From Thermoanaerobaculia bacterium (GTDB lineage: Bacteria; Acidobacteriota; Thermoanaerobaculia; UBA5066): 64,000 nucleotides of DNA. Both the position numbers and the translations under genes were made by a program. Positions 5,810-47,200 of this stretch are shown here, piece after piece. The stretch covers positions 743,517-807,516 of the forward strand of contig JBGASW010000002.1 in NCBI GenBank assembly GCA_044229475.1, given 5' to 3'. Each line of letters opens with the position of its first letter. The stretch's first letter is position 1. The notes under the pieces were generated by a model that was not told the origin of the DNA, did not search any database, and saw nothing but the letters and a program-made list of their open reading frames with translations.

Positions 5810-6778
5810 ATGCGCCGCAAGCCGCGCGCCCTTCTCTTTCTCGTCGCCGCACTGCTCATCGCGTCGTCTCCGGCACGGCCGGAGGAGATTTCTGCTTCGG
5901 AAATCCGCGTGTCGGCCGGGACGACCCGCTCCGGCGACCTCGTGGCTCTCGGAAGGAGGATTCTCTTAGAAGGTGAATTGGAAGGAAGCGTGGTGCTCGT
6001 CGGAGGCGGTGAGGCCGTGGTGACGGGTCGCATTCGTCGTGACCTCGTTCTCCTCGGTGCGAACGCCACGATTCGCCGCGGAGCCCGCATCGACGGCGAC
6101 GTCCTCTCCCTCGGCGGCTCTCTCACCTTCGAAGAAAATCCCCCGGTCTCTTCGGACGTCTCGCCTTTTCGCGGGCCGTCCCATCCGCAGGTCGGCGGGC
6201 GCGTTCGCACGGTCTCCGCCCTCGAGGCCGCCGTCGCCACGGAGCTGCAGACGTCCCCCGCCGCATCGCTCGCGCAGTGGCCGTTCCTCCTCTCGTTCCG
6301 CCTCGCGCTCCTCTTCGCGTGGCTCGTCGTCTCGCTCCTCCTCCTCGTTCTCGCGCCGCGGGCGATCGGCGAGTCCGCAGCGGGAGTCGCCGGGCGGAGT
6401 GCGTTCCTCGGCGCGCTCGGTGCAACCGCCGTCCTGACCGCCGCGCTCGCCGGCGCGCTCGCGCTGTCGCTCCTGCCGTCGCGCGTTTCGCTCGCGGCCG
6501 GCGCGGTCGTCCTCCTGGCGCTCGTCGCGGCGAAGGTCTGGGGGCTCACGGCGCTCTTCCTCGCCCTGGGCCGCCGCCTGAACGCGAGCGCCCGGCGCGG
6601 CAGCGCGCTCTTCGGCGATCCGGCCGCGGCTGCACTCGGCCTCCTCGCTCTCGGCGCCGCATCGCTCGTTCCGGTCGTGGGTCCCCTCGTCTGGGGCGCG
6701 GCGTCGCTCGTCGGGATCGGCGTTTCCCTCGCCGACGCCGCCTCCCGGGCCCCGCGGGTCGCGCTCGCGCCCTCCTGA
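5810..6778 (+). CDS. Bactofilin-like (polymer-forming beta-helix repeat) domain fused to a multi-pass membrane region
   Basis: Signal/TM N-terminus. Repeats [64 protein letters not shown] resemble bactofilin/CcmA repeats. C-terminal half is hydrophobic. Confidence 0.5.
5958..6140. repeat. Convergent motif pair inside the bactofilin-like gene (GGATTCTCTTAGAAGGTG 5958-5975; CCTTCGAAGAAAATC 6126-6140). Nearby 5885-5905 holds palindrome GATTTC-N7-GAAATC
   Basis: Read in-frame as [10 protein letters not shown] and LTFEENPP. Confidence 0.6.
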
Positions 6779-6824
6779 TAGGCTCGGCGCCGGGTCGCCG
6801 GGCGGCCCCACAGGAGTCCAGCGG

Positions 6825-7706
6825 ATGAGTCTCGAAAAGATCGGCGTCGTCGGCGCCGGCCAGATGGGAGCGGGAATCGCGCACGTCGCGGCGCTCGCCG
6901 GCAAGAGCGTGGTCCTCCTCGACGTCTCCGACGACGCCGTGCAGAAGGGCCTGAAGGCGATCGGGAAGAACCTCGGCCGGCAGGTCGAGAAGGGCAAGGT
7001 CACGGCGGACACCCGCGACGCCGCGCTCGCGCGCATCTCTCCCACGACGGACCTGGGGCGTTTCGCCGACGCGGACCTCGTCGTCGAGGCCGTCGTCGAG
7101 AACGAGGACGTCAAGAAGGACCTCTTCGGGAAGCTCGACGTCCTCGTGAAGGCCGGCGGCATCCTCGCCTCCAACACCTCGTCGATCTCGATCACGCGTC
7201 TCGCGGCCTCGACGAAGCGGCCGGAGCGCTTCATCGGAATGCACTTCATGAACCCGGTGCCCGTCATGACGCTCGTCGAGGTCATCCGGGGGATCGCGAC
7301 GTCCGACGAGACGACGGCCTCCGTGGTCGCCCTCGCCGAGGCGATGGGGAAGACACCTCTCCTCTGCCGCGACTTCCCGGGCTTCGTCTCGAACCGCGTC
7401 CTGATGCCGATGCTCAACGAGGCGTTCTTCGTCCTCCACGAGGGCATCGCGACGCCCGAGGCCGTGGACGGGATCATGAAGCTCGGCATGAACCACCCGA
7501 TGGGCCCGCTCACGCTCGCCGACTTCATCGGCCTCGACACGTGCCTCGCGATCCTCCGCGTCCTGCACGGCGGCCTCGGCGACGACAAGTACCGCCCGTG
7601 CCCGCTCCTCGTGCAGATGGTCGACGCGGGCTGGCTCGGGAAGAAGGCCGGCCGAGGCTTCTATCGTTACGACGCCCCCGGTGGGAATCGGATTGAGATT
7701 TCTTAG
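6825..7706 (+). CDS. 3-hydroxybutyryl-CoA / 3-hydroxyacyl-CoA dehydrogenase
   Basis: N-terminal [13 protein letters not shown] Rossmann fold. Conserved NTSSISIT and [14 protein letters not shown] motifs. RBS AGGAG upstream. The TAG stop lies inside an AT-rich motif copy. Confidence 0.9.
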
Positions 7707-7751
7707 AAGGGAAGAGGGGCGAGCGGCGGGAGCTCCTCGGGTGGTCGTCCC

Positions 7752-15263: not shown

Positions 15264-16891
15264 TCTCCGGCGACGTCCTCGGGGAGCGCGCGCGGCTGTC
15301 GCCGGAGAAGACCGCGCTCGTCGAGGTCGCGACGGGACGGCGCTTCACCTATGCGGAGCTGGATGCGCGCGCGAGAGGCGCGGCACGGACGCTGACCGAG
15401 GGGCTCGGCCTGAAAAAGGGCGACCGCATGGCCCTCCTCGCGGGCAATTGCGTGGAGTTCCTCGACGTCTTCTTCGCGTGCGGGAAGAACGGCGTCGTCC
15501 TCGTCCCGCTCAACACGCGCCAGACGGCGGGAGAGCTGATTGGCGTCCTCGAGGACGCAGAGCCGAAAGCGCTGATCTATGGAGCCGCGTTCGAAGAGAC
15601 CGTTGAAGATTTGCTTAGAAAGGTAAGAGGGGTAACCCCGGTTCTTCTCGACGCGCCGGCGCAGCGTGGCGCGAGGGCGGCGGGCGCGCCGAACGCCCGC
15701 ACCACCTTCAAGGAAATCTTCTCTTCTCCTCCAGCGGCGGCTCCTGCCGCCGCTGCAGAAGTCCCCTCTCCCGGCCCGGAAGATCTCTACTGCCTCCTCT
15801 ACACCTCCGGCACCACGGGCAAGCCGAAGGGCGTGATGGTGCCGCACCGGATGGTCGCGTGGAACGCGGTGAACACCGTCGTGTCGTGGCAGCTGCGCGA
15901 GGACGACGTGTCGCCGATCTACACGCCGCTGTACCACGCGGGCGGCCTCGGCGCGTTCCTGACGCCGGTCTTCGCGATCGGCGGGACGATCGTCCTCCAC
16001 GCCGGCTTCGACGCCGCGGAGGTCCTCGCGACGATCGGGAAGGAGCGCTGCACGGTGGTCCTCGGCGTGCCGACGATCTTCCGGATGCTCCAGGAGCACC
16101 CGTCGTGGGCGTCGGCCGACTTCTCCTCGGTCCGCTACTTCATCAGCGGTGGTGCGCCGCTGCCGCTCGACATCATCGAGACGTGGCACCGGCGCGGCGC
16201 GAACTTCAAGCAGGGCTACGGCCTCACCGAAGTCGGCGTGAACTGCTTCGCGATGAGCGTCGAGGAGTCCGTGCGGAAGGCCGGCTCGATCGGCAGGCCG
16301 ATGATGTTCACGGAGGCGAAGCTGACCGGCGAGGACGGGCGGGAGGTCCCGGTGGGCGAGGTCGGCGAGCTCCTCCTCAGGGGCCCGCACGTCTGCCGGG
16401 GCTACTTCCGGAATCCCGAGGCGACGGCGGCGTCGCTCGATGCCGAGGGCTGGTTCCACACGGGCGACCTCGCGAAGAAGGACGAGGACGGGTTCTTCAC
16501 GATCGCGGGCCGCAAGAAGGACATGCTGATCTCGGGCGGCGTGAACGTGTACCCGGCCGAGATCGAGGGTGTCCTCTTCCAGCATCCGCGGGTGAAGGAC
16601 GTCGCGGTCGTCGGCGTGCCCGACGAGAAGTGGGGCGAGGTCGGCGTGGCCTTCGTCGTTCGGAGGGAAGAAGGGAGAGAGGAGAAGGGAGAAGAGAAGA
16701 TTTCTTTGAAGGTAATAGGAGAGATGGCCGAACTGGCGGCCTTTGTCGAGGCGCGCCTCGCGAAGTACAAGGTTCCCCGGGAGTTCATCTTCGTCGCGAG
16801 CCTGCCCCGGACCCCCTATGGGAAAGTCGTGAAGGGTGACCTCCGCTCTCTTTACCTTTCAAAGAAATCTTCAACGAATGAAGCCCGATGA
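15260..16891 (+). CDS. Acyl-CoA synthetase / fatty-acyl-AMP ligase (AMP-binding family)
   Basis: GTG overlaps upstream stop (GTGA). AMP-binding motif YTSGTTGKPKGV, plus YGLTE and the C-terminal KYKVPREFIFVASLPRTPYGKV. Confidence 0.9.
   Translation: MISGDVLGERARLSPEKTALVEVATGRRFTYAELDARARGAARTLTEGLGLKKGDRMALLAGNCVEFLDVFFACGKNGVVLVPLNTRQTAGELIGVLEDAEPKALIYGAAFEETVEDLLRKVRGVTPVLLDAPAQRGARAAGAPNARTTFKEIFSSPPAAAPAAAAEVPSPGPEDLYCLLYTSGTTGKPKGVMVPHRMVAWNAVNTVVSWQLREDDVSPIYTPLYHAGGLGAFLTPVFAIGGTIVLHAGFDAAEVLATIGKERCTVVLGVPTIFRMLQEHPSWASADFSSVRYFISGGAPLPLDIIETWHRRGANFKQGYGLTEVGVNCFAMSVEESVRKAGSIGRPMMFTEAKLTGEDGREVPVGEVGELLLRGPHVCRGYFRNPEATAASLDAEGWFHTGDLAKKDEDGFFTIAGRKKDMLISGGVNVYPAEIEGVLFQHPRVKDVAVVGVPDEKWGEVGVAFVVRREEGREEKGEEKISLKVIGEMAELAAFVEARLAKYKVPREFIFVASLPRTPYGKVVKGDLRSLYLSKKSSTNEAR
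15605..15721. repeat. Convergent motif pair in acyl-CoA synthetase N-terminus (GAAGATTTGCTTAGAAAGG 15605-15623; CCTTCAAGGAAATCTTC 15705-15721)
   Basis: 17/19-nt near-reverse-complementary. Encodes DLLRKV and TFKEIFSS. Confidence 0.65.
16696..16882. repeat. Convergent motif pair at acyl-CoA synthetase C-terminus (GAAGATTTCTTTGAAGGTA 16696-16714; CCTTTCAAAGAAATCTTC 16865-16882), near-perfect 18-nt inverted repeat
   Basis: Arms differ by one inserted base. Encodes EKISLKVIGE and an unusual C-terminal tail LYLSKKSSTNEAR. Confidence 0.7.
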
Positions 16892-21606: not shown

Positions 21607-21639
21607 GGCCGCGCCTCATCCTGCTAATCTCCGCGGCCT

Positions 21640-23421
21640 ATGCGCTGGTCCCAGTCGTTTCTCGTGACCCTCCGGGAGGTCCCCGGCGACGCCGAGGTGG
21701 TCTCCCATCAGCTCCTCTACCGCGCGGGCTTCATCCAGAAGCTCGCCGCCGGCATCTACTCGTACACGCCGTTCGGCTTTCGCTCGCTCAGGAAGATGAT
21801 CGAGATCGTGCGCGAGGAGATGGACGCCACGGGCGCCCAGGAAGTGGACCTCCCGATCCTCCAGCCGAAGGAGCTGTGGGTCGAGTCGGGCCGCTGGGAC
21901 CGCTACCAGGCCGAGGGAATCCTCTTCCACCTCAAGGACCGCAAGGACGGCGAGTTCGCGCTCGCGCCGACCGCCGAGGAGGCCGTGACGGACATGGTCC
22001 GGCGCTCCGTGACGTCCTGGCGGCAGCTCCCGTTCAACCTGTACCAGATCCGCACGAAGTTCCGCGACGAGATCCGGCCGCGCTTCGGCCTCCTGCGCGG
22101 CCGCGAGTTCCTCATGAAGGACGCGTATTCCTTCGACCTCGACCAGAAGGGCCTCGACGCGCACTACGAGAAGATGGACGCGGCGTACCGGAAGATCTTC
22201 GACCGCTGCGGCCTCGAGTTCGCGGTCGTGCAGGCGGACTCGGGCGCGATCGGCGGCTCGGCTTCGGAAGAGTTCATGGTCGTCGCCGACACCGGCGAGG
22301 ACGCGCTCGTGTTCGCGGAAGCCGGCGATTACGGCGCGAACATCGAGAAGGCCGTGACAGCGCCGCTCCCCGAGCCGTGGGCGGGGGAGGACGCGAAGCC
22401 GTTCCAGAAGGCGGGCGCCACGACCCCGGGCATTACGACTACGGACGGCCAGGCCAAACATCTCGCGACCGAACCGGCGCGCATCGTGAACACGATGCTC
22501 TACGAAGCCGTTGGACCGGACGGCAAGGCACGGCTCGTCGCGGTTCTCATCCGCGGCGATCTCGCCATCAACGAGGTCAAGCTTCCCAAGGCGCTCGGCG
22601 CGCTTCACGTGAAGCTCGCTTCGGAGGAGATTCTTCGAAAGGTCACAGGGACGCGCCCCGGATTCGTCGGGCCGCTCGGTCTTCAACCATTCGAAGAAAA
22701 TCCGATCTCCCTCTTCGTCGACCGGTCCCTGGAGCACGGAGTCAACGTATGGTGCGGGGCAAACCTCGACGACCATCATCATGCTCAGGTGTCCATCAAG
22801 CGTGACGTCATGTCCGATCCGGCTTTTGCCGGCGTCGTCGAGGTCGCGACCGCCCGCGACGGCGATCCCTCGCCGGCGCCGAAGGGCGGCGCGCTGCGCA
22901 TCAAGCGCGGCATCGAGGTCGGGCACATCTTCAAGCTCGGCACGAAGTACTCCGAGGCCATGAAGTGCGAGGTCGCCGACCAGGCGCAGAAGATGGTGCC
23001 GCTCGCGATGGGCTGCTACGGGCTCGGCCTCGGCCGCACGATCGCGGCCGCCATCGAGCAGCACCACGACGAGCACGGCATCGTGTGGCCCGTCCCGCTC
23101 GCGCCGTACGCGTGCGTCGTCGCGGCCCTCCAGCGCGACGCCGACGTCCTCGCCGCCGCCGACAAGCTCTACGGGGACCTGAAGGCCGCCGGCGTCGAGG
23201 TGTTTTACGACGACCGCGACGAGCGGCCGGGCGTGAAGTTCAAGGACATCGACCTCATCGGCTTCCCCGTGCGGGTCGTCGTCGGCGGGAAGTCGCTCGC
23301 GAAGGGCGTCGTCGAGGTCTCGACGCGGCGCGAGAAGCAGGCGCAGGGGATCGCCCTCGCGGACGTCGTCGGCGTCGTGAAGAAGACGCTCGCCGCGGGC
23401 GCGAAGACTCTGGCCGTGTAG
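21640..23421 (+). CDS. proS: Proline--tRNA ligase (bacterial type with editing domain)
   Basis: 593 aa. Class II aaRS motifs (FRDEIRPRFGLLRGREFLMKDAYSF; GIEVGHIFKLGTKYSE; MGCYGLGLGR). C-terminal anticodon-binding domain. Confidence 0.95.
   Translation: MRWSQSFLVTLREVPGDAEVVSHQLLYRAGFIQKLAAGIYSYTPFGFRSLRKMIEIVREEMDATGAQEVDLPILQPKELWVESGRWDRYQAEGILFHLKDRKDGEFALAPTAEEAVTDMVRRSVTSWRQLPFNLYQIRTKFRDEIRPRFGLLRGREFLMKDAYSFDLDQKGLDAHYEKMDAAYRKIFDRCGLEFAVVQADSGAIGGSASEEFMVVADTGEDALVFAEAGDYGANIEKAVTAPLPEPWAGEDAKPFQKAGATTPGITTTDGQAKHLATEPARIVNTMLYEAVGPDGKARLVAVLIRGDLAINEVKLPKALGALHVKLASEEILRKVTGTRPGFVGPLGLQPFEENPISLFVDRSLEHGVNVWCGANLDDHHHAQVSIKRDVMSDPAFAGVVEVATARDGDPSPAPKGGALRIKRGIEVGHIFKLGTKYSEAMKCEVADQAQKMVPLAMGCYGLGLGRTIAAAIEQHHDEHGIVWPVPLAPYACVVAALQRDADVLAAADKLYGDLKAAGVEVFYDDRDERPGVKFKDIDLIGFPVRVVVGGKSLAKGVVEVSTRREKQAQGIALADVVGVVKKTLAAGAKTLAV
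22627..22702. repeat. Convergent motif pair inside proS (GAGATTCTTCGAAAGGTC 22627-22644; CCATTCGAAGAAAATC 22687-22702)
   Basis: Encodes EEILRKVTG and QPFEENPIS. The intervening sequence is native-looking ProS (GPGxxGPL). Confidence 0.65.
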
Positions 23422-34553: not shown

Positions 34554-35207
34554 GTGAAAGCGAGTCACCGTCTCCCGATCCCGGGCCTCGACGCGCTGCG
34601 CCGATCGCTCAGGCGCCGCCTGCTCGGCCGCGGCAAGCCGAGGTCGGCCGAGGTGTGGAACGACCAGTACCGGGCCGGCACGTGGGACGGGCTCGTCGCC
34701 GAGACCGAGCGGCACGCTTGCGTCGCGGAGCTCATTCGTCGGTACGCTCCGCCCGCGCCTCTGGTCCTGGACGTCGGGTGCGGGCACGGCGCGCTTGCCC
34801 GCCAGCTGAGAACCGGCGCGGGAGGACGCTACGTGGGGATCGACATTTCGGAGGAGGCGGTCCGGCGCGCGGAAGAGGGCGCCGTTCCGGAGGAGTCGTT
34901 CCGTGCGTTCGACGTCGAAGGGGGGCCGCCCGACTTCCTCGCGCCCGGATCGGTCGACGCGGCGGTCTTCGCCGAAGTCCTCTACTACCTCGACGACCCG
35001 CTTGCGACGCTCCGCCGCTTTCTGCCGCTCCTGTCGCCGCGCGGCATCTTCGTCTTCTCCCTCTGGAAGCCGGCCCGCCACCGGGTCCTTCGCCGGCGCC
35101 TCGCCAGGGAGTACGACGAAGCCTGCGCCCGGGAAGTCGGGCGCGGCGAGACGTGGCGGATCAGCTTCTGCGTTCCGCGGGGACGCTCTCTTCCGGTTCC
35201 CGCCTGA
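34554..35207 (+). CDS. Class I SAM-dependent methyltransferase
   Basis: GTG start. Motif I LVLDVGCGHGALA. Acidic motif II, then FVFSLW. Overlaps mutY 3' end convergently. Confidence 0.7.
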   Translation: MKASHRLPIPGLDALRRSLRRRLLGRGKPRSAEVWNDQYRAGTWDGLVAETERHACVAELIRRYAPPAPLVLDVGCGHGALARQLRTGAGGRYVGIDISEEAVRRAEEGAVPEESFRAFDVEGGPPDFLAPGSVDAAVFAEVLYYLDDPLATLRRFLPLLSPRGIFVFSLWKPARHRVLRRRLAREYDEACAREVGRGETWRISFCVPRGRSLPVPA

Positions 35208-36354
35208 GCCGGGCGCGGTGCGCGCGCCACGCGGCGAGCACCTTCAGGAGCAGGCCGCCGTGGGCGACACGGGAGATCTGGCTCGGGGAGAGAGCACAGA
35301 GACGGGACGCTGCGCGGCGCCCGCGACGCGGACGAGAGATGGAGGACGGGGGAAGAAGACTTTCTTTGAAGGTGAAGAGGGAAATCCGATAGCGCCTCTC
35401 GAGTACGGAATGGCGAAGCACCGCCACCGGCTCGATTGCGCTGACGTCACGCCCGGCGAGACGCTTCCACCACCTTCTAAGAGAATTTGCAGACCCGTCC
35501 CCGGCGCGCACGCGCAGCATCGGAGGGACGAGGTGGCCGGCGACCATCTCCTGATCTTCAACCAGCAGAATCTTCTTTCCTCTCTCCACGATCGCGCCGA
35601 CGAGATGAATCGTCCTGGGCGAAACGCGGGCGGCCGCCCGCGGAAACGCCTCCGGCGTCCCGCCCGCGGCCGCGCGGCAGGAGGAGCGGAGCGGGCACGC
35701 GCCGCAGCGCGGCGCGCGCGGCGTGCAGACGAGCGCTCCAATCTCCATGAGGGCCTGGTTGAAGTCGCCCGGATTCCGCGCCGGCACGAGAGGCCGGGCG
35801 ACCGCCCGGACCCTCGCGAGCGTCGCGGACGTCTTCGGGTCGAGCTTGAGCGCCTTGAGACGGCAGAGGACGCGCACGACGTTGCCGTCCACCACGGGCT
35901 CGGGGATGCCGTATGCGATCGACGCGACCGCGGCGGCCGTGTACGCGCCCACGCCGGGGAGCGCACGCCAGCCTTCGAGCGTGCGCGGAAACGCGCCCGC
36001 CGCGGCGACGGCCCTCGCGGCGCGGTGGAGGTTCCGGGCGCGCGCGTAGTACCCGAGGCCGCTCCACTCGGCGAGGACGTCGCACTCCTTCGCGCGGGCG
36101 AGCGCCTCGACGGTCGGGAAGCGCGCGCGGAAGCGTTCCCAGCGGGGCACGACGACGTCGAGCGTCGTCTGCTGCGCCATGATCTCGGAGAGCCAGATCG
36201 CGTACGGGTCGCGCGTGGAGCGCCACGGCAGGCTGCGCCGCGCCCGGCGATACCAGCGCGCGAGCCGGCGCGTCAGGTCGGCCGGGTCGTCGATCACGGG
36301 CGGGAGTCTAGACTCGGTGCGTGGACGTCGACTGGGAAGGCCTGACGGTCGCAT
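35161..36354 (-). CDS. mutY: A/G-specific adenine DNA glycosylase
   Basis: HhH-GPD region WSGLGYYARARNL. 4Fe-4S Cys cluster CTPRAPRCGACPLRSSC. C-terminal NUDIX-like domain. Alternative GTG start at 36297. Confidence 0.85.
   Translation of the reverse strand: MRPSGLPSRRPRTESRLPPVIDDPADLTRRLARWYRRARRSLPWRSTRDPYAIWLSEIMAQQTTLDVVVPRWERFRARFPTVEALARAKECDVLAEWSGLGYYARARNLHRAARAVAAAGAFPRTLEGWRALPGVGAYTAAAVASIAYGIPEPVVDGNVVRVLCRLKALKLDPKTSATLARVRAVARPLVPARNPGDFNQALMEIGALVCTPRAPRCGACPLRSSCRAAAGGTPEAFPRAAARVSPRTIHLVGAIVERGKKILLVEDQEMVAGHLVPPMLRVRAGDGSANSLRRWWKRLAGRDVSAIEPVAVLRHSVLERRYRISLFTFKESLLPPSSISRPRRGRRAASRLCALSPSQISRVAHGGLLLKVLAAWRAHRARLRREPEESVPAERRS
35355..35488. repeat. Convergent motif pair in mutY 3' region (GAAGACTTTCTTTGAAGGTG 35355-35374; CCTTCTAAGAGAATTT 35474-35488). 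A further related copy lies at 35568-35595
   Basis: On the mutY coding strand they read FTFKESLL and ANSLRRWW. Confidence 0.6.
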
Positions 36355-36731
36355 TCGCGGCGCGTTCGAAGCTCATGAACCACTTCCTCGACCGCGCGTC
36401 CGGGGACGTGCACGCGCACCTGAACGGCTCGCCGGAGCTGCGCGAGGCGCTCCTCCACGAGCGGTCGGGGCAGTACCTCCGGATTCCGAAGTCCACGCCG
36501 GAAGTCGACGCGGCGCGCTGCCGCGCGTTCGCGCCCGGAATGAAGAGCGACGCCGTGCGCGAGACGGCGCTTCAGGCGCTCGACGCGGGCGGCCCCGGCG
36601 CGTTTCGCGAGGCGCTGATCGCGTCGCCCGAGGACGAAGCGGCCTGGTTCGTGTTCCGCGACCGGCGCGTGCGCGAGGAGCTGCGCGCGTGGCTCGCGGC
36701 TCAGGGCGTGCGCGCGGAGCCGCCGCGCTGA
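36321..36731 (+). CDS. Hypothetical protein (136 aa)
   Basis: GTG-start ORF with strong GC3 bias. No recognisable motif. Slight overlap with the longest mutY start option. Confidence 0.45.
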   Translation: MDVDWEGLTVAFAARSKLMNHFLDRASGDVHAHLNGSPELREALLHERSGQYLRIPKSTPEVDAARCRAFAPGMKSDAVRETALQALDAGGPGAFREALIASPEDEAAWFVFRDRRVREELRAWLAAQGVRAEPPR

Positions 36732-43656: not shown

Positions 43657-44241
43657 GTGGCGGCGAGCGGTTCCTTCTACGGGCTCCTGACGCGGCGGGT
43701 GGGCGAGGCCCGCCTTGCGGCCGCGCTCCCGCACCTGCCGAGGGGCGGCGGCGGCAGAGTCCTGGACGTGGGCTGCGGCCTGACGGATCTCGCGGCGCGG
43801 ATCCCCGACTACACCGGCGCAGACCGCAATCCCGACGTGCTCGCCGAACAGAGAGGGAGATTTCCGAAGAGAGATTTCTATGAATGGGACATCGTTCGGG
43901 GCGCGGCTCCGGCGGCGCTCTCGGCGAAAGCACCATTCGGGGGAATTCTTCTTCTGGCCGTCCTCGAACACGTTCAGGAACCCGCTTCGGTGCTCGGACG
44001 TCTCGCGCCGCTTCTCGCGCCCGGAGGCCGGTTGATCGCGACGACGCCTCATCCGAGCGGCCGCTGGCCGCTGGAGGCGGGCGCGGCGCTCGGCCTGCTC
44101 TCCTCCCACGCCCATGACGAGCACGAGACGCTCCTCGGCCGCGAGTCCCTGGAATCGGCGGGCCGCGCTTCGGGGCTGTCTCTCGTTCTCTACCGGAGGT
44201 TCCTCCTCGGCATGAACCAGCTCGCGGTCTACACACGGTGA
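43657..44241 (+). CDS. Class I SAM-dependent methyltransferase
   Basis: GTG start. Motif I VLDVGCGLTDLA. Post-I acidic region. LLLAVLEHV. Confidence 0.7.
   Translation: MAASGSFYGLLTRRVGEARLAAALPHLPRGGGGRVLDVGCGLTDLAARIPDYTGADRNPDVLAEQRGRFPKRDFYEWDIVRGAAPAALSAKAPFGGILLLAVLEHVQEPASVLGRLAPLLAPGGRLIATTPHPSGRWPLEAGAALGLLSSHAHDEHETLLGRESLESAGRASGLSLVLYRRFLLGMNQLAVYTR
43855..43951. repeat. Tandem forward copies (GGGAGATTTCCGAAGAG 43855-43871; GAGATTTCTATGAATGG 43871-43887) plus reverse copy CCATTCGGGGGAATTCTTC 43933-43951 in methyltransferase gene
   Basis: Encodes RGRFPKRDFYEWD and KAPFGGILL. Confidence 0.55.
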
Positions 44242-47200
44242 CGGCCGGCCCCCGCCTCGTCCGCCGCGGCGCGGACGCGATCCATGTCGTGAACGCCCGC
44301 ACGCACAACCTCAGGGACGTCACGTGCACGATCCCCGTGGGGGCGCTCACCGTCGTGACGGGCCCTTCGGGTTCCGGCAAGTCTTCGCTCGCGTTCGACA
44401 CGCTCTACGCCGAGGGCCAGCGTCGCTTCGTCGAGTCCATGTCCACGTACGCGCGCCAGTACCTCGAGCGGCTCGAACGTCCGGACGTGGACGAGATCAC
44501 GCACGTCCTCCCGGCGATCGCGATCGAGCAGAGGGCGCCCGCGCGCTCGGCGCGCTCGACGATCGGGTCGGCCACCGAGATCCACGACGTCCTGCGCCTC
44601 CTCTTCTCGGCCGCGGGCACGCTGCGCTGCCCGGACGACGGCAGCCCCGTGCGCCGCGAGACGGCCGAGAGCGTCCGGGCGGCTCTTCTCGAAGAGTTCG
44701 GCGAGGGCGCGCGCCTCCTCGTCGTCGCGCCTCGCAGAGTGACGTCGTTCGCGGCGGAGAGCGCGGAGTGGAGGAGGCTTGGCTTCTACCGGTACGTCGG
44801 AGCTGCGGGCGACGTTCTGGAAATAGAAGAGAAGATTTCTTCGAGTGAAAGAGAGAGGGAGAGCAGCTCGCCGCCCCGCAGGGCCGTAGCGCGTTCGAGC
44901 GCGGCGCGTCGTCCCTCTTCACCCTTCAAAGAGATCCCCTCTTCCTCCCTCTTCCCTCTGCTCATCGGCCGCCACGTACTGCGGGCTGACGATCCGGAAA
45001 TCCTCTCTTCACTTTCAACGGCCTTCGACGCCGCAGACGGATCGCTTCTCGTCTTGAAGTCCGGAGAGGGTCTTTCCTCCGCCCGCACGTTCCGCCGCGG
45101 CCTGTCGTGCAACGCGTGCGGCCGGGCGTTCGCGGACCCGGTGCCCGCGCTCTTCTCGTTCAACTCGCCGCGCGGGGCCTGCGAGACGTGCCAGGGGTTC
45201 GGGCGGATCGTCGGCATCGACGCGGCGCGCGTCATTCCCGACCCGCGCAAGACGCTGCGCGAGCGTCCGATCGCACCGTTCAACTCGCCCTCGTACGAGA
45301 GCGCGTACGACGACCTCAAGGCGGCGTCGCGCCGCCTCAAGCTGCGGTGGGACGTTCCCTGGAACGAGCTGACGCAGCGGGAGAGGGACGCCGTCTGGAC
45401 GCGCTCCGGAGATTGGTACGGCGTCGAGGGCCTCTTCGAGTACCTCGAGAAGAAGCGCTACAAGGTTCAGGTTCGCGTCATGCTCGCGCGCTACCGCGGC
45501 TACTCGACGTGCCCCGAGTGCCGCGGCGCGCGGCTGAGGCCCGAGGCGCTCGCCGTGACGGTCGGCGGAAAGACGATCGCCGAGGTCTGCGACCTGACGC
45601 TCGACGGATTCGTGGCGTTTCTCGGGGCGCTCCCGCTGCGCGAAGCCGAGCGCGAGCGGGCAGCTTCCCTCGTCGAGGAGCTGGCGCGGCGCGCGGGGAC
45701 GCTCGTCGAGATCGGCCTCGGCTACCTGACGCTCGCGCGCACGATGCGCACGCTGTCGGGCGGTGAGGCTCAGCGCGTCCAGCTCGGCTCCGCGATCGGC
45801 AACGCGCTGACCGGAACGCTCTACGTCCTCGACGAGCCGACGGTGGGCCTGCATCCGCGGGACACGCGGCGGCTCCTCGCGGTCCTCGAGAGGCTCGCGG
45901 CCGCGGGCAACGCGGTCGTGGCCGTCGAGCACGACACGGACGTCATCCGTGCGGCCGACCACGTCATCGACCTCGGCCCGGGGGCCGGCGCGCTCGGCGG
46001 GCGGCTCGTCTTCGAAGGAACGCCGGAGGAGCTGACCGAGGCGGACACCGCGACGGGAAGGTCGTTGAAGAAGGAGAAAGAGATACTTCTTGCTTCGGAC
46101 GCGGCGGGATACGGGCCGACTGTGGCGACGGACGCCGTGGCTGCGGAGACGGTGGGAGCCTTCGGCACTTTCTTTGAAGGTGGAGTGAGTGCAGGCGCGC
46201 CCGAGAGGCCGGAGGGCCGCATTCGCCCCGCCGCCCATTCACCTTCTAAGGAAAACCATCGTGACGATTCGATTCGCGTGCCACTCGAATCGATACAGGT
46301 CGTGGGTGCGCGAGCAAATAATCTCCAGAACCTCTCGGTCTCGTTTCCCTTGCGGCGGCTGGTGGCGGTGTCCGGGGTGTCGGGGTCGGGGAAATCCTCC
46401 CTCGTCGTCGACGTTCTCGCCGCGGGCGCGCGGCAGCGCATGGGCAAGGGCCTCCTGCCGGGCATCGACGCGGTGGGGGAGCACGATGGCATCTTCGGGC
46501 TCGAGCACGTTTCGGACGTCATCCTCGTCGACCAGTCGCCGCCCGGGCGCTCCTCGCGCTCGAACCCGGCGACCGTGACGAAGGCTTGGGACGAGATCCG
46601 GACGCTCCTCGCCCGGACGCCCGCCGCGAAGGCGCGCGGCCTCGAGAAGGGCGCCTTCAGCTTCAACGCGGCGGGCGGGCGGTGCGAGAGGTGCGAGGGC
46701 GCCGGCGTCGTGACCGTGGACATGCAGTTCCTCGCGGACGTGACGATCGTCTGCGACGTCTGCGACGGGCGCCGCTTCAAACCGGAGGTCCTCGAGGTGC
46801 GCCTGAGGGGCCGGAACGTCGACGAACTCCTCGCGACGACCGTCGACGAGGCGCGCCTCCTCTTCGCGGACGCGCCCGCCATCGCGAGCCGCCTCCAGCC
46901 GCTCGCCGACGCGGGGCTCGGGTACCTCACGCTCGGCCAGTCGACGGCGACGCTCTCGGGCGGAGAGGCGCAGCGGCTGAAGATCGCGACGTTCCTCCGG
47001 GGGGCCGAGGCCCCGAAGGCGCCGGTCCTGTTCGTTTTCGACGAGCCGACGACCGGCCTGGCGCCGTCCGACGTCGACGTCCTCCTCGCCGTGTTCCGCC
47101 GGCTCCTCGCGGCCGGCCATTCGATCGTCGCGGTCGAGCACAACACGGCCTTTCTCGCGCGCGCCGACCACCTGATCGAGCTGGGCCCGGACGGCGGCCC

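Follow-up and report, generated by a model that had tools for sequence, protein, structure and literature searches.

We analysed a 64,000-nucleotide (nt) stretch of DNA from a Thermoanaerobaculia bacterium (Acidobacteriota; contig JBGASW010000002.1, positions 743,517 to 807,516), referred to below as the window, which carries the repair gene uvrA with an enlarged linker between its two ATPase modules. The protein, read from a single unbroken open reading frame (ORF), scored 859.9 bits against the TIGR00630 UvrA equivalog model of NCBIfam, above the cut-off of 729.8, and did not reach the stricter NF001503 model (876.8 against 1147). Its closest solved structures were class I UvrAs, those of T. 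maritima (3pih, E=1.4e-220) and G. stearothermophilus (2r6f). ATPase modules I and II were both present, with Walker and signature columns invariant among orthologues; ATPase and zinc-module columns were all conserved in the UvrA alignment, as were, to a high degree, both halves of the protein. The UvrB-binding domain model of Pfam (PF17760) gave no match, yet residues 118-201 aligned to residues 107-192 of T. maritima UvrA, and AlphaFold2 predicted an alpha/beta domain in this region, interrupted by the first (site 1) of the two inserts described below.

Structure alignments placed the end of module I at residue 616/617 (I616/L617, nt ~46085) and the resumption of module II at residue 678/686 (I686, nt 46293). 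The spacer between the modules measured ~68 residues, as against 4 unaligned residues in 3pih (577 to 582) and 12 in 2r6f (617 to 630), giving an excess over solved UvrAs of ~56-57 amino acids (aa). A preliminary description of this DNA had put the expansion at about 65 aa; the expansion is real and slightly smaller. GC content was 0.54-0.69 over 46000-46349 and 0.72-0.78 on both sides. The same 1023-aa protein was found on 6 contigs, of which the three shown derive from three separate samples; such identity across independent contigs and samples indicates that the linker sequence is not an assembly artefact. In an AlphaFold2 model built with a 45-sequence alignment (mean predicted local distance difference test score, pLDDT, 73.7), the ATPase and zinc modules were modelled well, and residues 200-236 and 620-682 had pLDDT <50 with no secondary structure. 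This prediction agrees with the preliminary description, which had judged the linker peptide unstructured from its sequence. The linker DNA is probably translated into peptide.

We identified 120 nt of the spacer (46167-46286) as one member of a dispersed inverted-repeat family. Its arm cores, TTTCTTWGAAGG at 46169-46180 and the complement at 46242-46253, lie at a core-to-core length of 85 nt, within the family mode, and both arms were recovered by nhmmer (left, 46164-46189 on the plus strand, E=0.0025; right, 46262-46233 on the minus strand, E=0.0023). The right arm reads HSPSKE on the plus strand and agrees with the commonest arm type, GAAGGTGAATGGGG; the flank beyond it resembles a recurrent flank of canonical copies, AAGAAAAACCACCGGGACGG, and in the orthologue protein alignment HSPSKK always precedes ~12 extra residues. 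On the other side, the last ~12 nt of the base linker (CCTTCGGC) are similar to a recurrent left flank of the family, for example ATTCGGCGC followed by TTTCTT in canonical copies. Judged against the orthologue L122, 40 aa of the linker (120 nt) are attributable to the element; the other ~27 aa lie outside it and are common to nearly all orthologues of the clade, with or without an element. The coordinates of these parts are collected in Table 1.

Table 1. Features of uvrA and its inter-module linker (window coordinates).
Feature	Coordinates	Strand	Basis or remark
uvrA, single unbroken ORF, 1023 aa	44238-47309	+	ORF list; TIGR00630; best solved relative 3pih
Second in-frame family copy in uvrA, loop of N-terminal half, aa ~200-236	44830-44942	+	nhmmer; orthologue comparison
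C-terminal helix of module I (aa 605-622), containing the 46074 look-alike GAGAAAGAGATACTTCTTGCTTCGGA	46050-46103	+	AlphaFold2; aligns to native GKKFIP of 2r6f
Clade-wide base linker	46104-46166	+	In nearly all 72 orthologues, arm-less ones included
Inserted block, 120 nt = 40 codons	46167-46286	+	Missing in orthologue L122; DNA of 8 orthologues compared codon by codon
Left arm, core TTTCTTTGAAGG at 46169-46180 then TGGAGTGAGTG, read as FFEGG	46168-46192	+	Exact core match; nhmmer
Variable GC-rich interior	46193-46229	+	Homologous to interiors of L002 and L121, poorly conserved
Right arm, minus-strand core TTCCTTAGAAGG (46242-46253) with TGAATGGGCGG after it	46230-46254	-	2 mismatches; nhmmer
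Right flank of inserted block (AACCATCGTGACGATTCGATTCGCGTGCCACTCGAA)	46255-46286	+	Always accompanies the right arm in orthologues
Small inverted repeat TCGATTCG (46269-46276) / CGAATCGA (46286-46293), 9-nt loop	46269-46293	.	Close to chance
Start of ATPase module II	46293-46330	+	Aligned to 2r6f residue 630 onward and TIGR00630 position 611 onward; strand 685-692 in model

The core motif is strongly over-represented in the window. TTTCTTTGAAGG with at most 2 mismatches occurred 18 times, against 0.89 expected, and 0 of 100 shuffles reached 18; a profile built from the window copies resolved them into about a dozen convergent pairs (a plus arm followed by a minus arm) 70-180 nt apart. The attribution of the extra linker DNA to a dispersed AT-rich motif family, made in the preliminary description, was thus borne out, the block 46167-46286 being a typical member in arms, length and flank type. 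The three separate copies listed there were reduced to one element: those at 46166 and 46243 are significant family members that form its two arms, and that at 46074 is not significant. The element's RNA folded into a long imperfect hairpin (-43.6 kcal/mol, z = -1.24), no better than shuffles, and since interiors across the family folded barely better than controls we dropped a structured-RNA reading.

To follow the element through evolution, 72 UvrA orthologues of 64-88% identity were aligned, and arm classes were counted over 73 sequences. Both arms (AFLEGG ... HSPSKK) were present in 18/73, the left only in 24, the right only in 7 and neither in 24, with median linkers of 85, 51.5, 67 and 43 aa, respectively. 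Close relatives having the long linker and lacking the AT-rich motifs would speak against the family as the source of the extra length; in the orthologue alignment, length followed the arms. The few long arm-less linkers (P0034, P0049, P0054, P0060 and P0071) carry a second repeat family instead. At the DNA level, L122 reads GCCTTCGGC joined directly to GACGCGATCCGT (also GCCTTCGGC joined to GACGCGATC) where the window has 120 extra nt and L002 has 138 nt. L001 retains the left arm only, and L004 the left arm plus part of the interior. The indels among orthologues had breakpoints inside the element and imprecise boundaries, and all were in frame.

A second family copy lies in frame in the N-terminal half of uvrA. 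Its arms matched the profile at 44942-44915 on the minus strand (E=0.0021) and at 44830-44844 on the plus strand (E=0.43). At this site the window has 168 nt against 81 nt in the deep orthologues L119 and L120, a difference of 87 nt that equals the modal element length, and the copy is polymorphic among close orthologues; like the linker, this site carries a full, a partial or no element in different orthologues. In other lineages the same two UvrA sites contain an unrelated repeat of ~130 nt (L008:7543-7675, L055:2076-2212, L048:715-835), whose ends are likewise inverted (CCCGGACGTCCGGAGTCAAGGG...), which is preceded by a GGGGCTGCTGATGCAGCCCC hairpin upstream, and which recurs at dispersed loci of one genome with 84-88% identity. 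This repeat appears to be translated there in three frames or orientations: as RMTDVKG..PLRGARSAPLTS in P0020 and P0034, as AASAAPNIRKN in P0049 and P0054, and as RRLLKQPP..DRSQGRASRAA..TLDTG in P0060 and P0071. Independent insertions by unrelated repeat families at two sites of one protein are the strongest argument that these sites are permissive spacers collecting insertions.

The distribution of the family was determined by an exact-pattern scan (TTTCTTWGAAGG-N55-85-CCTTCWAAGAAA) of one genome per species for 185,579 species. At least 111 paired copies were found, all in metagenome-assembled genomes of Thermoanaerobaculia/Acidobacteriota and coming, among the matches listed, from about 25 assemblies; by our own arithmetic, assuming uniform base composition, fewer than 1 match is expected by chance. 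This copy sample was picked by its exact cores and is unusable for measuring their conservation. Core-to-core length ranged from 79 to 109 nt with a mode of 86-87, the modal class as a whole spanning 85-88 nt (85, 86, 87 and 88 nt occurred 12, 20, 21 and 7 times among the matches listed), and at least 9 exact paired copies lay on one 3.67-Mb contig, CAWCSP010000004.1. In 1.05 Mb of sequence, selected for containing elements, there were 356 cores with at most 1 mismatch. Adjacent cores less than 200 nt apart formed 140 convergent (+-) pairs, 131 of them at 60-120 nt, and 0 divergent (-+) pairs.

Each arm consists of the core TTTCTTWGAAGG followed by GTGARKRGGG, with the two arms convergent, a variable GC-rich interior and modular outer flanks. 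The ~10 nt beyond the core are conserved in a few types (GTGAATGGGG, GGTGAGTGGGG, GTGAAGAGGG); one subfamily has a common interior, CCGCTCGAG, and interiors otherwise vary. The outer flank types are recurrent and mixed between left and right: a purine run, (GATTCG)n, CGGGTAAGGGCGC, GGTCTGCAAA and GGGACCGGGGGA. We had at first taken the pairs for flanks of unrelated interiors, and had considered attC-like sites or invertons; the modal length and the common arm types favour one family whose interior diverges fast. Strictly tested, 11 of the 102 canonical copies (~11%) lie in frame inside coding-like ORFs, the others being intergenic or at gene ends. The in-frame copies are confined to stop-free frames, reading FLEG or FLRR on one side and PSKK, FKE or LLRK on the other. 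In canonical copies of relatives the TAG in the core is often the stop codon of the upstream gene, 5 nt into the element. Rfam returned nothing relevant over the whole window at the gathering threshold or over 44700-46400 at E up to 1, and literature searches on the core sequences, on Acidobacteria MITEs (transposable elements of the miniature inverted-repeat type) and on Thermoanaerobaculia repeats yielded unrelated primer matches only. The family therefore seems to be undescribed so far.

Two further observations concern the surroundings of family members. Tandem (GATTCG)n arrays, each unit with a GANTC site, and (GAAGAA)n purine runs abut cores in relatives (L023:~5960-6020 on the minus strand, L077:7136-7163, L021:2824-2845 and others). 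L027:200-440, L011:950-1220 and L050:2170-2290 represent a single orthologous intergenic site. In the first two, a right-arm core is accompanied by a GCAGGCG...CGGTCTGCAAAG hairpin and by a full element; in the third there is just one right-arm core, which fits a deletion or a duplication between cores in direct repeat.

We favour, with a probability of about 0.78, the explanation that the linker holds, in frame, a tolerated and translated copy of a non-coding inverted-repeat element that is dispersed and specific to the lineage, MITE-like or REPIN-like (REPINs being doublets of repetitive extragenic palindromic sequences, REPs). Some mobilising activity would have inserted the element into the linker. 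The minority of copies that land in permissive, surface-exposed protein spacers with a stop-free frame would survive selection and be translated; the UvrA copy would thereby add 40 residues, predicted to be disordered, between the two ABC ATPase modules, with a neutral or nearly neutral effect on the enzyme. The insertion is probably old, given its presence in orthologues of 64-67% identity, and the occurrence of full, left-only, right-only and absent elements in different lineages suggests erosion by internal deletions.

Several observations weigh against this explanation. In the ~1 Mb of related sequence sampled, no transposase or multi-copy autonomous partner was seen; convergent cores spaced 300-3000 nt apart were lacking there, as were segments longer than 140 nt in several copies within a genome. 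All-against-all BLAST of ~120 loci, together with the UvrA comparisons, gave no clean empty site or target-site duplication, the 'empty' alleles being deletion derivatives that keep a flank or an arm. Interiors across the family are weakly self-complementary (mean z -0.64 versus -0.21 for controls), so that the term 'palindromic element' overstates their structure. Translation of the linker is inferred from its open frame. Finally, the AT-rich cores have been kept with codons that the genome avoids, which would not be expected of selfish DNA that is dead and decays neutrally. The linker cores use TTA, GAA and TCT codons. Over the 6663 codons of 10 window genes, TTA accounts for 0 of 671 leucines, GAA for 12.7% of glutamates and TCT for 3.1% of serines, a codon bias so extreme that AT-rich motifs within genes stand out. 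(In the same genes AAA makes up 4% of lysine and TTT 5% of phenylalanine codons.) The cores at the linker site are nevertheless recognisable in orthologues of 64-67% identity, as CTTAGAAGG and CCTTCTAAG in L119 and in similar form in L120 and L121. Such persistence, with avoided codons, makes constraint on the cores, or their conversion, possible.

These last observations lend some weight to a tentative alternative, which is compatible with a mobile origin: that the paired cores (TTTCTTAGAAGG) function as a cis-element, for instance as two sites bound by a recombinase or by a DNA- or RNA-binding protein specific to the lineage, and are kept, even within genes, by selection or by gene conversion among copies. 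In diverged orthologues the DNA of the cores is conserved and that of the interior is not; length and orientation are strict despite a variable, weakly folding interior; and each core holds, by direct reading, a 9-nt palindrome, TTCTWAGAA. Against it, there is no known candidate protein, one arm or both have been lost in many orthologues with no consequence visible in the gene, and the large copy sample, selected on exact cores, is silent on core conservation. Nor was there an orientation bias with respect to transcription, the oriented subfamily standing 5 against 4 relative to flanking gene direction in a very small sample. A more specific proposal, to which we give slightly less credence, is that the cores are a sequence-specifically recognised signal of this Thermoanaerobaculia clade, two 12-nt sites ~75 nt apart centre to centre, maintained by selection or conversion even within genes and there forcing TTA-type codons, rather than selfish relics. 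If so, the UvrA linker would be one place where a protein accommodated the signal.

It is improbable that the linker grew by local processes only, such as replication slippage and low-complexity drift, with a convergent resemblance to the motif. Look-alikes can arise in place, as shown by a motif-like sequence at 43866 in the methyltransferase gene upstream of uvrA, which involves no insertion relative to deep orthologues, and microsatellite-like (GATTCG)n and (GAAGAA)n tracts adjoin many copies. Yet both arms of the linker element, their order, spacing and flanks agree with the family, orthologues have or lack the 120-nt block whole or in large pieces, and in other lineages the site is taken by a second repeat family, unrelated to the first. 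Very improbable, too, is an invertible segment whose arms serve as recombination sites and recode the linker by phase variation. Inverted repeats do bound a short segment, and the 1023-codon frame stays open when the interior is inverted, with or without the cores; in 72% GC DNA, however, such an outcome is expected, all orthologues with a full element share one interior orientation (peptide ..A.E.P...R.R..HSPSKK), all independent assemblies show one orientation, and recoding a disordered spacer would alter little. An insert absent from the protein, whether through assembly artefact, pseudogene, split gene, intein or translational bypass, is the least credible of all, for nothing hints at it except the region's low GC and its capacity to form a hairpin, and against it stand the identical ORF in independent assemblies, the lack of any stop or frameshift, orthologue indels that are all in frame, two highly conserved halves, and a block of 40 aa, far below intein size, which on direct reading lacks the in-frame stop after a take-off codon that characterises the bypass of T4 gene 60.

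Two smaller features of the linker region, both taken in the preliminary description as part of the expansion, fared less well than the arms. The supposed family copy at 46074 had no family profile hit within the window, and the orthologous site in L001 scored E=40 by nhmmer; it falls at the end of a confidently modelled helix that aligns to native UvrA sequence. The look-alike probably sits in native UvrA sequence. A 13-mer at this site, TTCTTGCTTCGG (TTCTT(T)GCTTCGG), recurs at 3 unrelated loci of relatives, and the site is possibly an old degenerate arm, a view to which the profile search gave no support. The second small inverted repeat does exist. Perfect 8-bp inverted repeats of such kind occur at 1.4 per kb in the window and in 4% of shuffles of the 240-nt segment, and this one is absent from the orthologue L002; lying in the element's right flank, near chance level and unconserved, it is no independent feature of note. 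In the same stretch, GATTCGATTCG at 46266 is the sole GATTCG doublet of the window.

Other motif occurrences in the window were of several kinds. Two convergent core pairs, 15606-15724 and 16694-16872, lie inside one acyl-CoA synthetase gene. The pair at 16694-16872 brackets native AMP-binding_C sequence, its left arm forming an insertion of ~13 aa in the domain and its right arm lying in the C-terminal tail; as these arms enclose native sequence, arms are not always the ends of a simple insert. A further pair, 35354-35491, lies inside a MutY/EndoIII-like HhH-GPD gene (minus strand, 35164-36372), past the Fe-S cluster motif; L001 (513-643) and L004 (1123-1261) have kept it at the orthologous position. 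The ORF 21628-23421 contains a weak convergent pair, 22631-22704, bordered on either side by coding-like sequence. The solitary core ATTTCTTAGAAGG at 7693-7720 contains a TAG (7704-7706) that is the stop codon of a 3-hydroxyacyl-CoA dehydrogenase gene (6582-7706). The motif at 43866-43894 in the methyltransferase gene was considered as an insertion and rejected, deep orthologues having the same protein length there; its occurrence with no change in length indicates that some 'copies' are look-alikes in native sequence.

The preferred reading, that of a tolerated and translated repeat element, would explain an odd-looking UvrA without a new domain, and in annotation and structure prediction residues 200-236 and 620-682 should be handled as spacers derived from repeats. 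At least two repeat families have hit the two 'landing pads' of this essential repair protein, which would be a second independent example, outside Rickettsia, of protein growth via read-through of small inverted-repeat elements. The family itself is apparently undescribed and restricted to its class, the Thermoanaerobaculia, known almost only from metagenomes; it might be useful for marking the lineage, and might mislead assemblers and gene callers. That AT-rich cores persist under a very strong GC codon bias raises the question whether the elements are merely tolerated or are used.

Among known repeat systems, bacterial interspersed mosaic elements (BIMEs) of E. coli are mosaics of REP units and linker motifs, strictly extragenic, and bound by IHF and gyrase. 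The Thermoanaerobaculia family has a similarly modular build, with the same core combined with a handful of discrete flank types mixed left and right; the sequences differ, and a strictly extragenic location separates BIMEs from it. REP doublets, or REPINs, are reportedly mobilised by RAYT transposases. Like them, the present family has two short conserved inverted sequences at a fixed distance, a less conserved spacer and hundreds of copies, mostly extragenic or near gene ends. Its single arms, however, are not strong palindromes, having only the 9-nt TTCTWAGAA, and in-frame intragenic copies are atypical of REPINs. According to PMC3733652, a GTAG or CGTC head tags most REPs, and the arm consensus TTTCTTAGAAGGTGAATGGGG has neither.

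MITEs such as Correia, ERIC and Coxiella QMITE1/2 (PMC5896051) resemble the family in ending in inverted repeats and encoding nothing themselves, in being dispersed and mainly intergenic, and in occasionally giving in-frame fusions or C-terminal extensions or supplying a stop codon, as does the core TAG at 7704-7706. Terminal inverted repeats of a short unit (46168-46254), many dispersed copies and insertion polymorphism among orthologues of 64-88% identity were all found here. The family differs from MITEs in that copies share only their ~25-nt ends, with no full-length consensus; in the loci sampled, no target-site duplication or parent insertion sequence was identified.

The likeness is greatest to the Rickettsia palindromic elements (RPEs). 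RPEs are ~100-150 bp long and have many copies, a sizeable share of which lie in frame in unrelated housekeeping genes (Ogata et al. 2000, via PMC10969869), and in-frame intragenic precedents comprise RPEs, intragenic ERIC and Coxiella QMITEs (PMC10969869, PMC5896051). On this account of RPEs, the two systems share a short inverted-repeat element with many copies, which is read through in frame as an extra peptide at fold-compatible positions and is conserved at orthologous sites across species. Both UvrA copies are open-framed, have pLDDT <50 and lie between well-modelled domains, as expected of a fold-compatible in-frame insertion. There is no sequence relationship, the phylum is another, the scan matches listed were all from Acidobacteriota, and the resemblance is functional only. 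The Thermoanaerobaculia family also differs in that only ~11% of its canonical copies are intragenic, in that its interior is unconserved and encodes no conserved peptide beyond the arms, and in that the element is read in several frames. By analogy, RPEs, together with intragenic ERIC and Coxiella QMITE insertions, would be the closest counterparts of the element in the UvrA linker.

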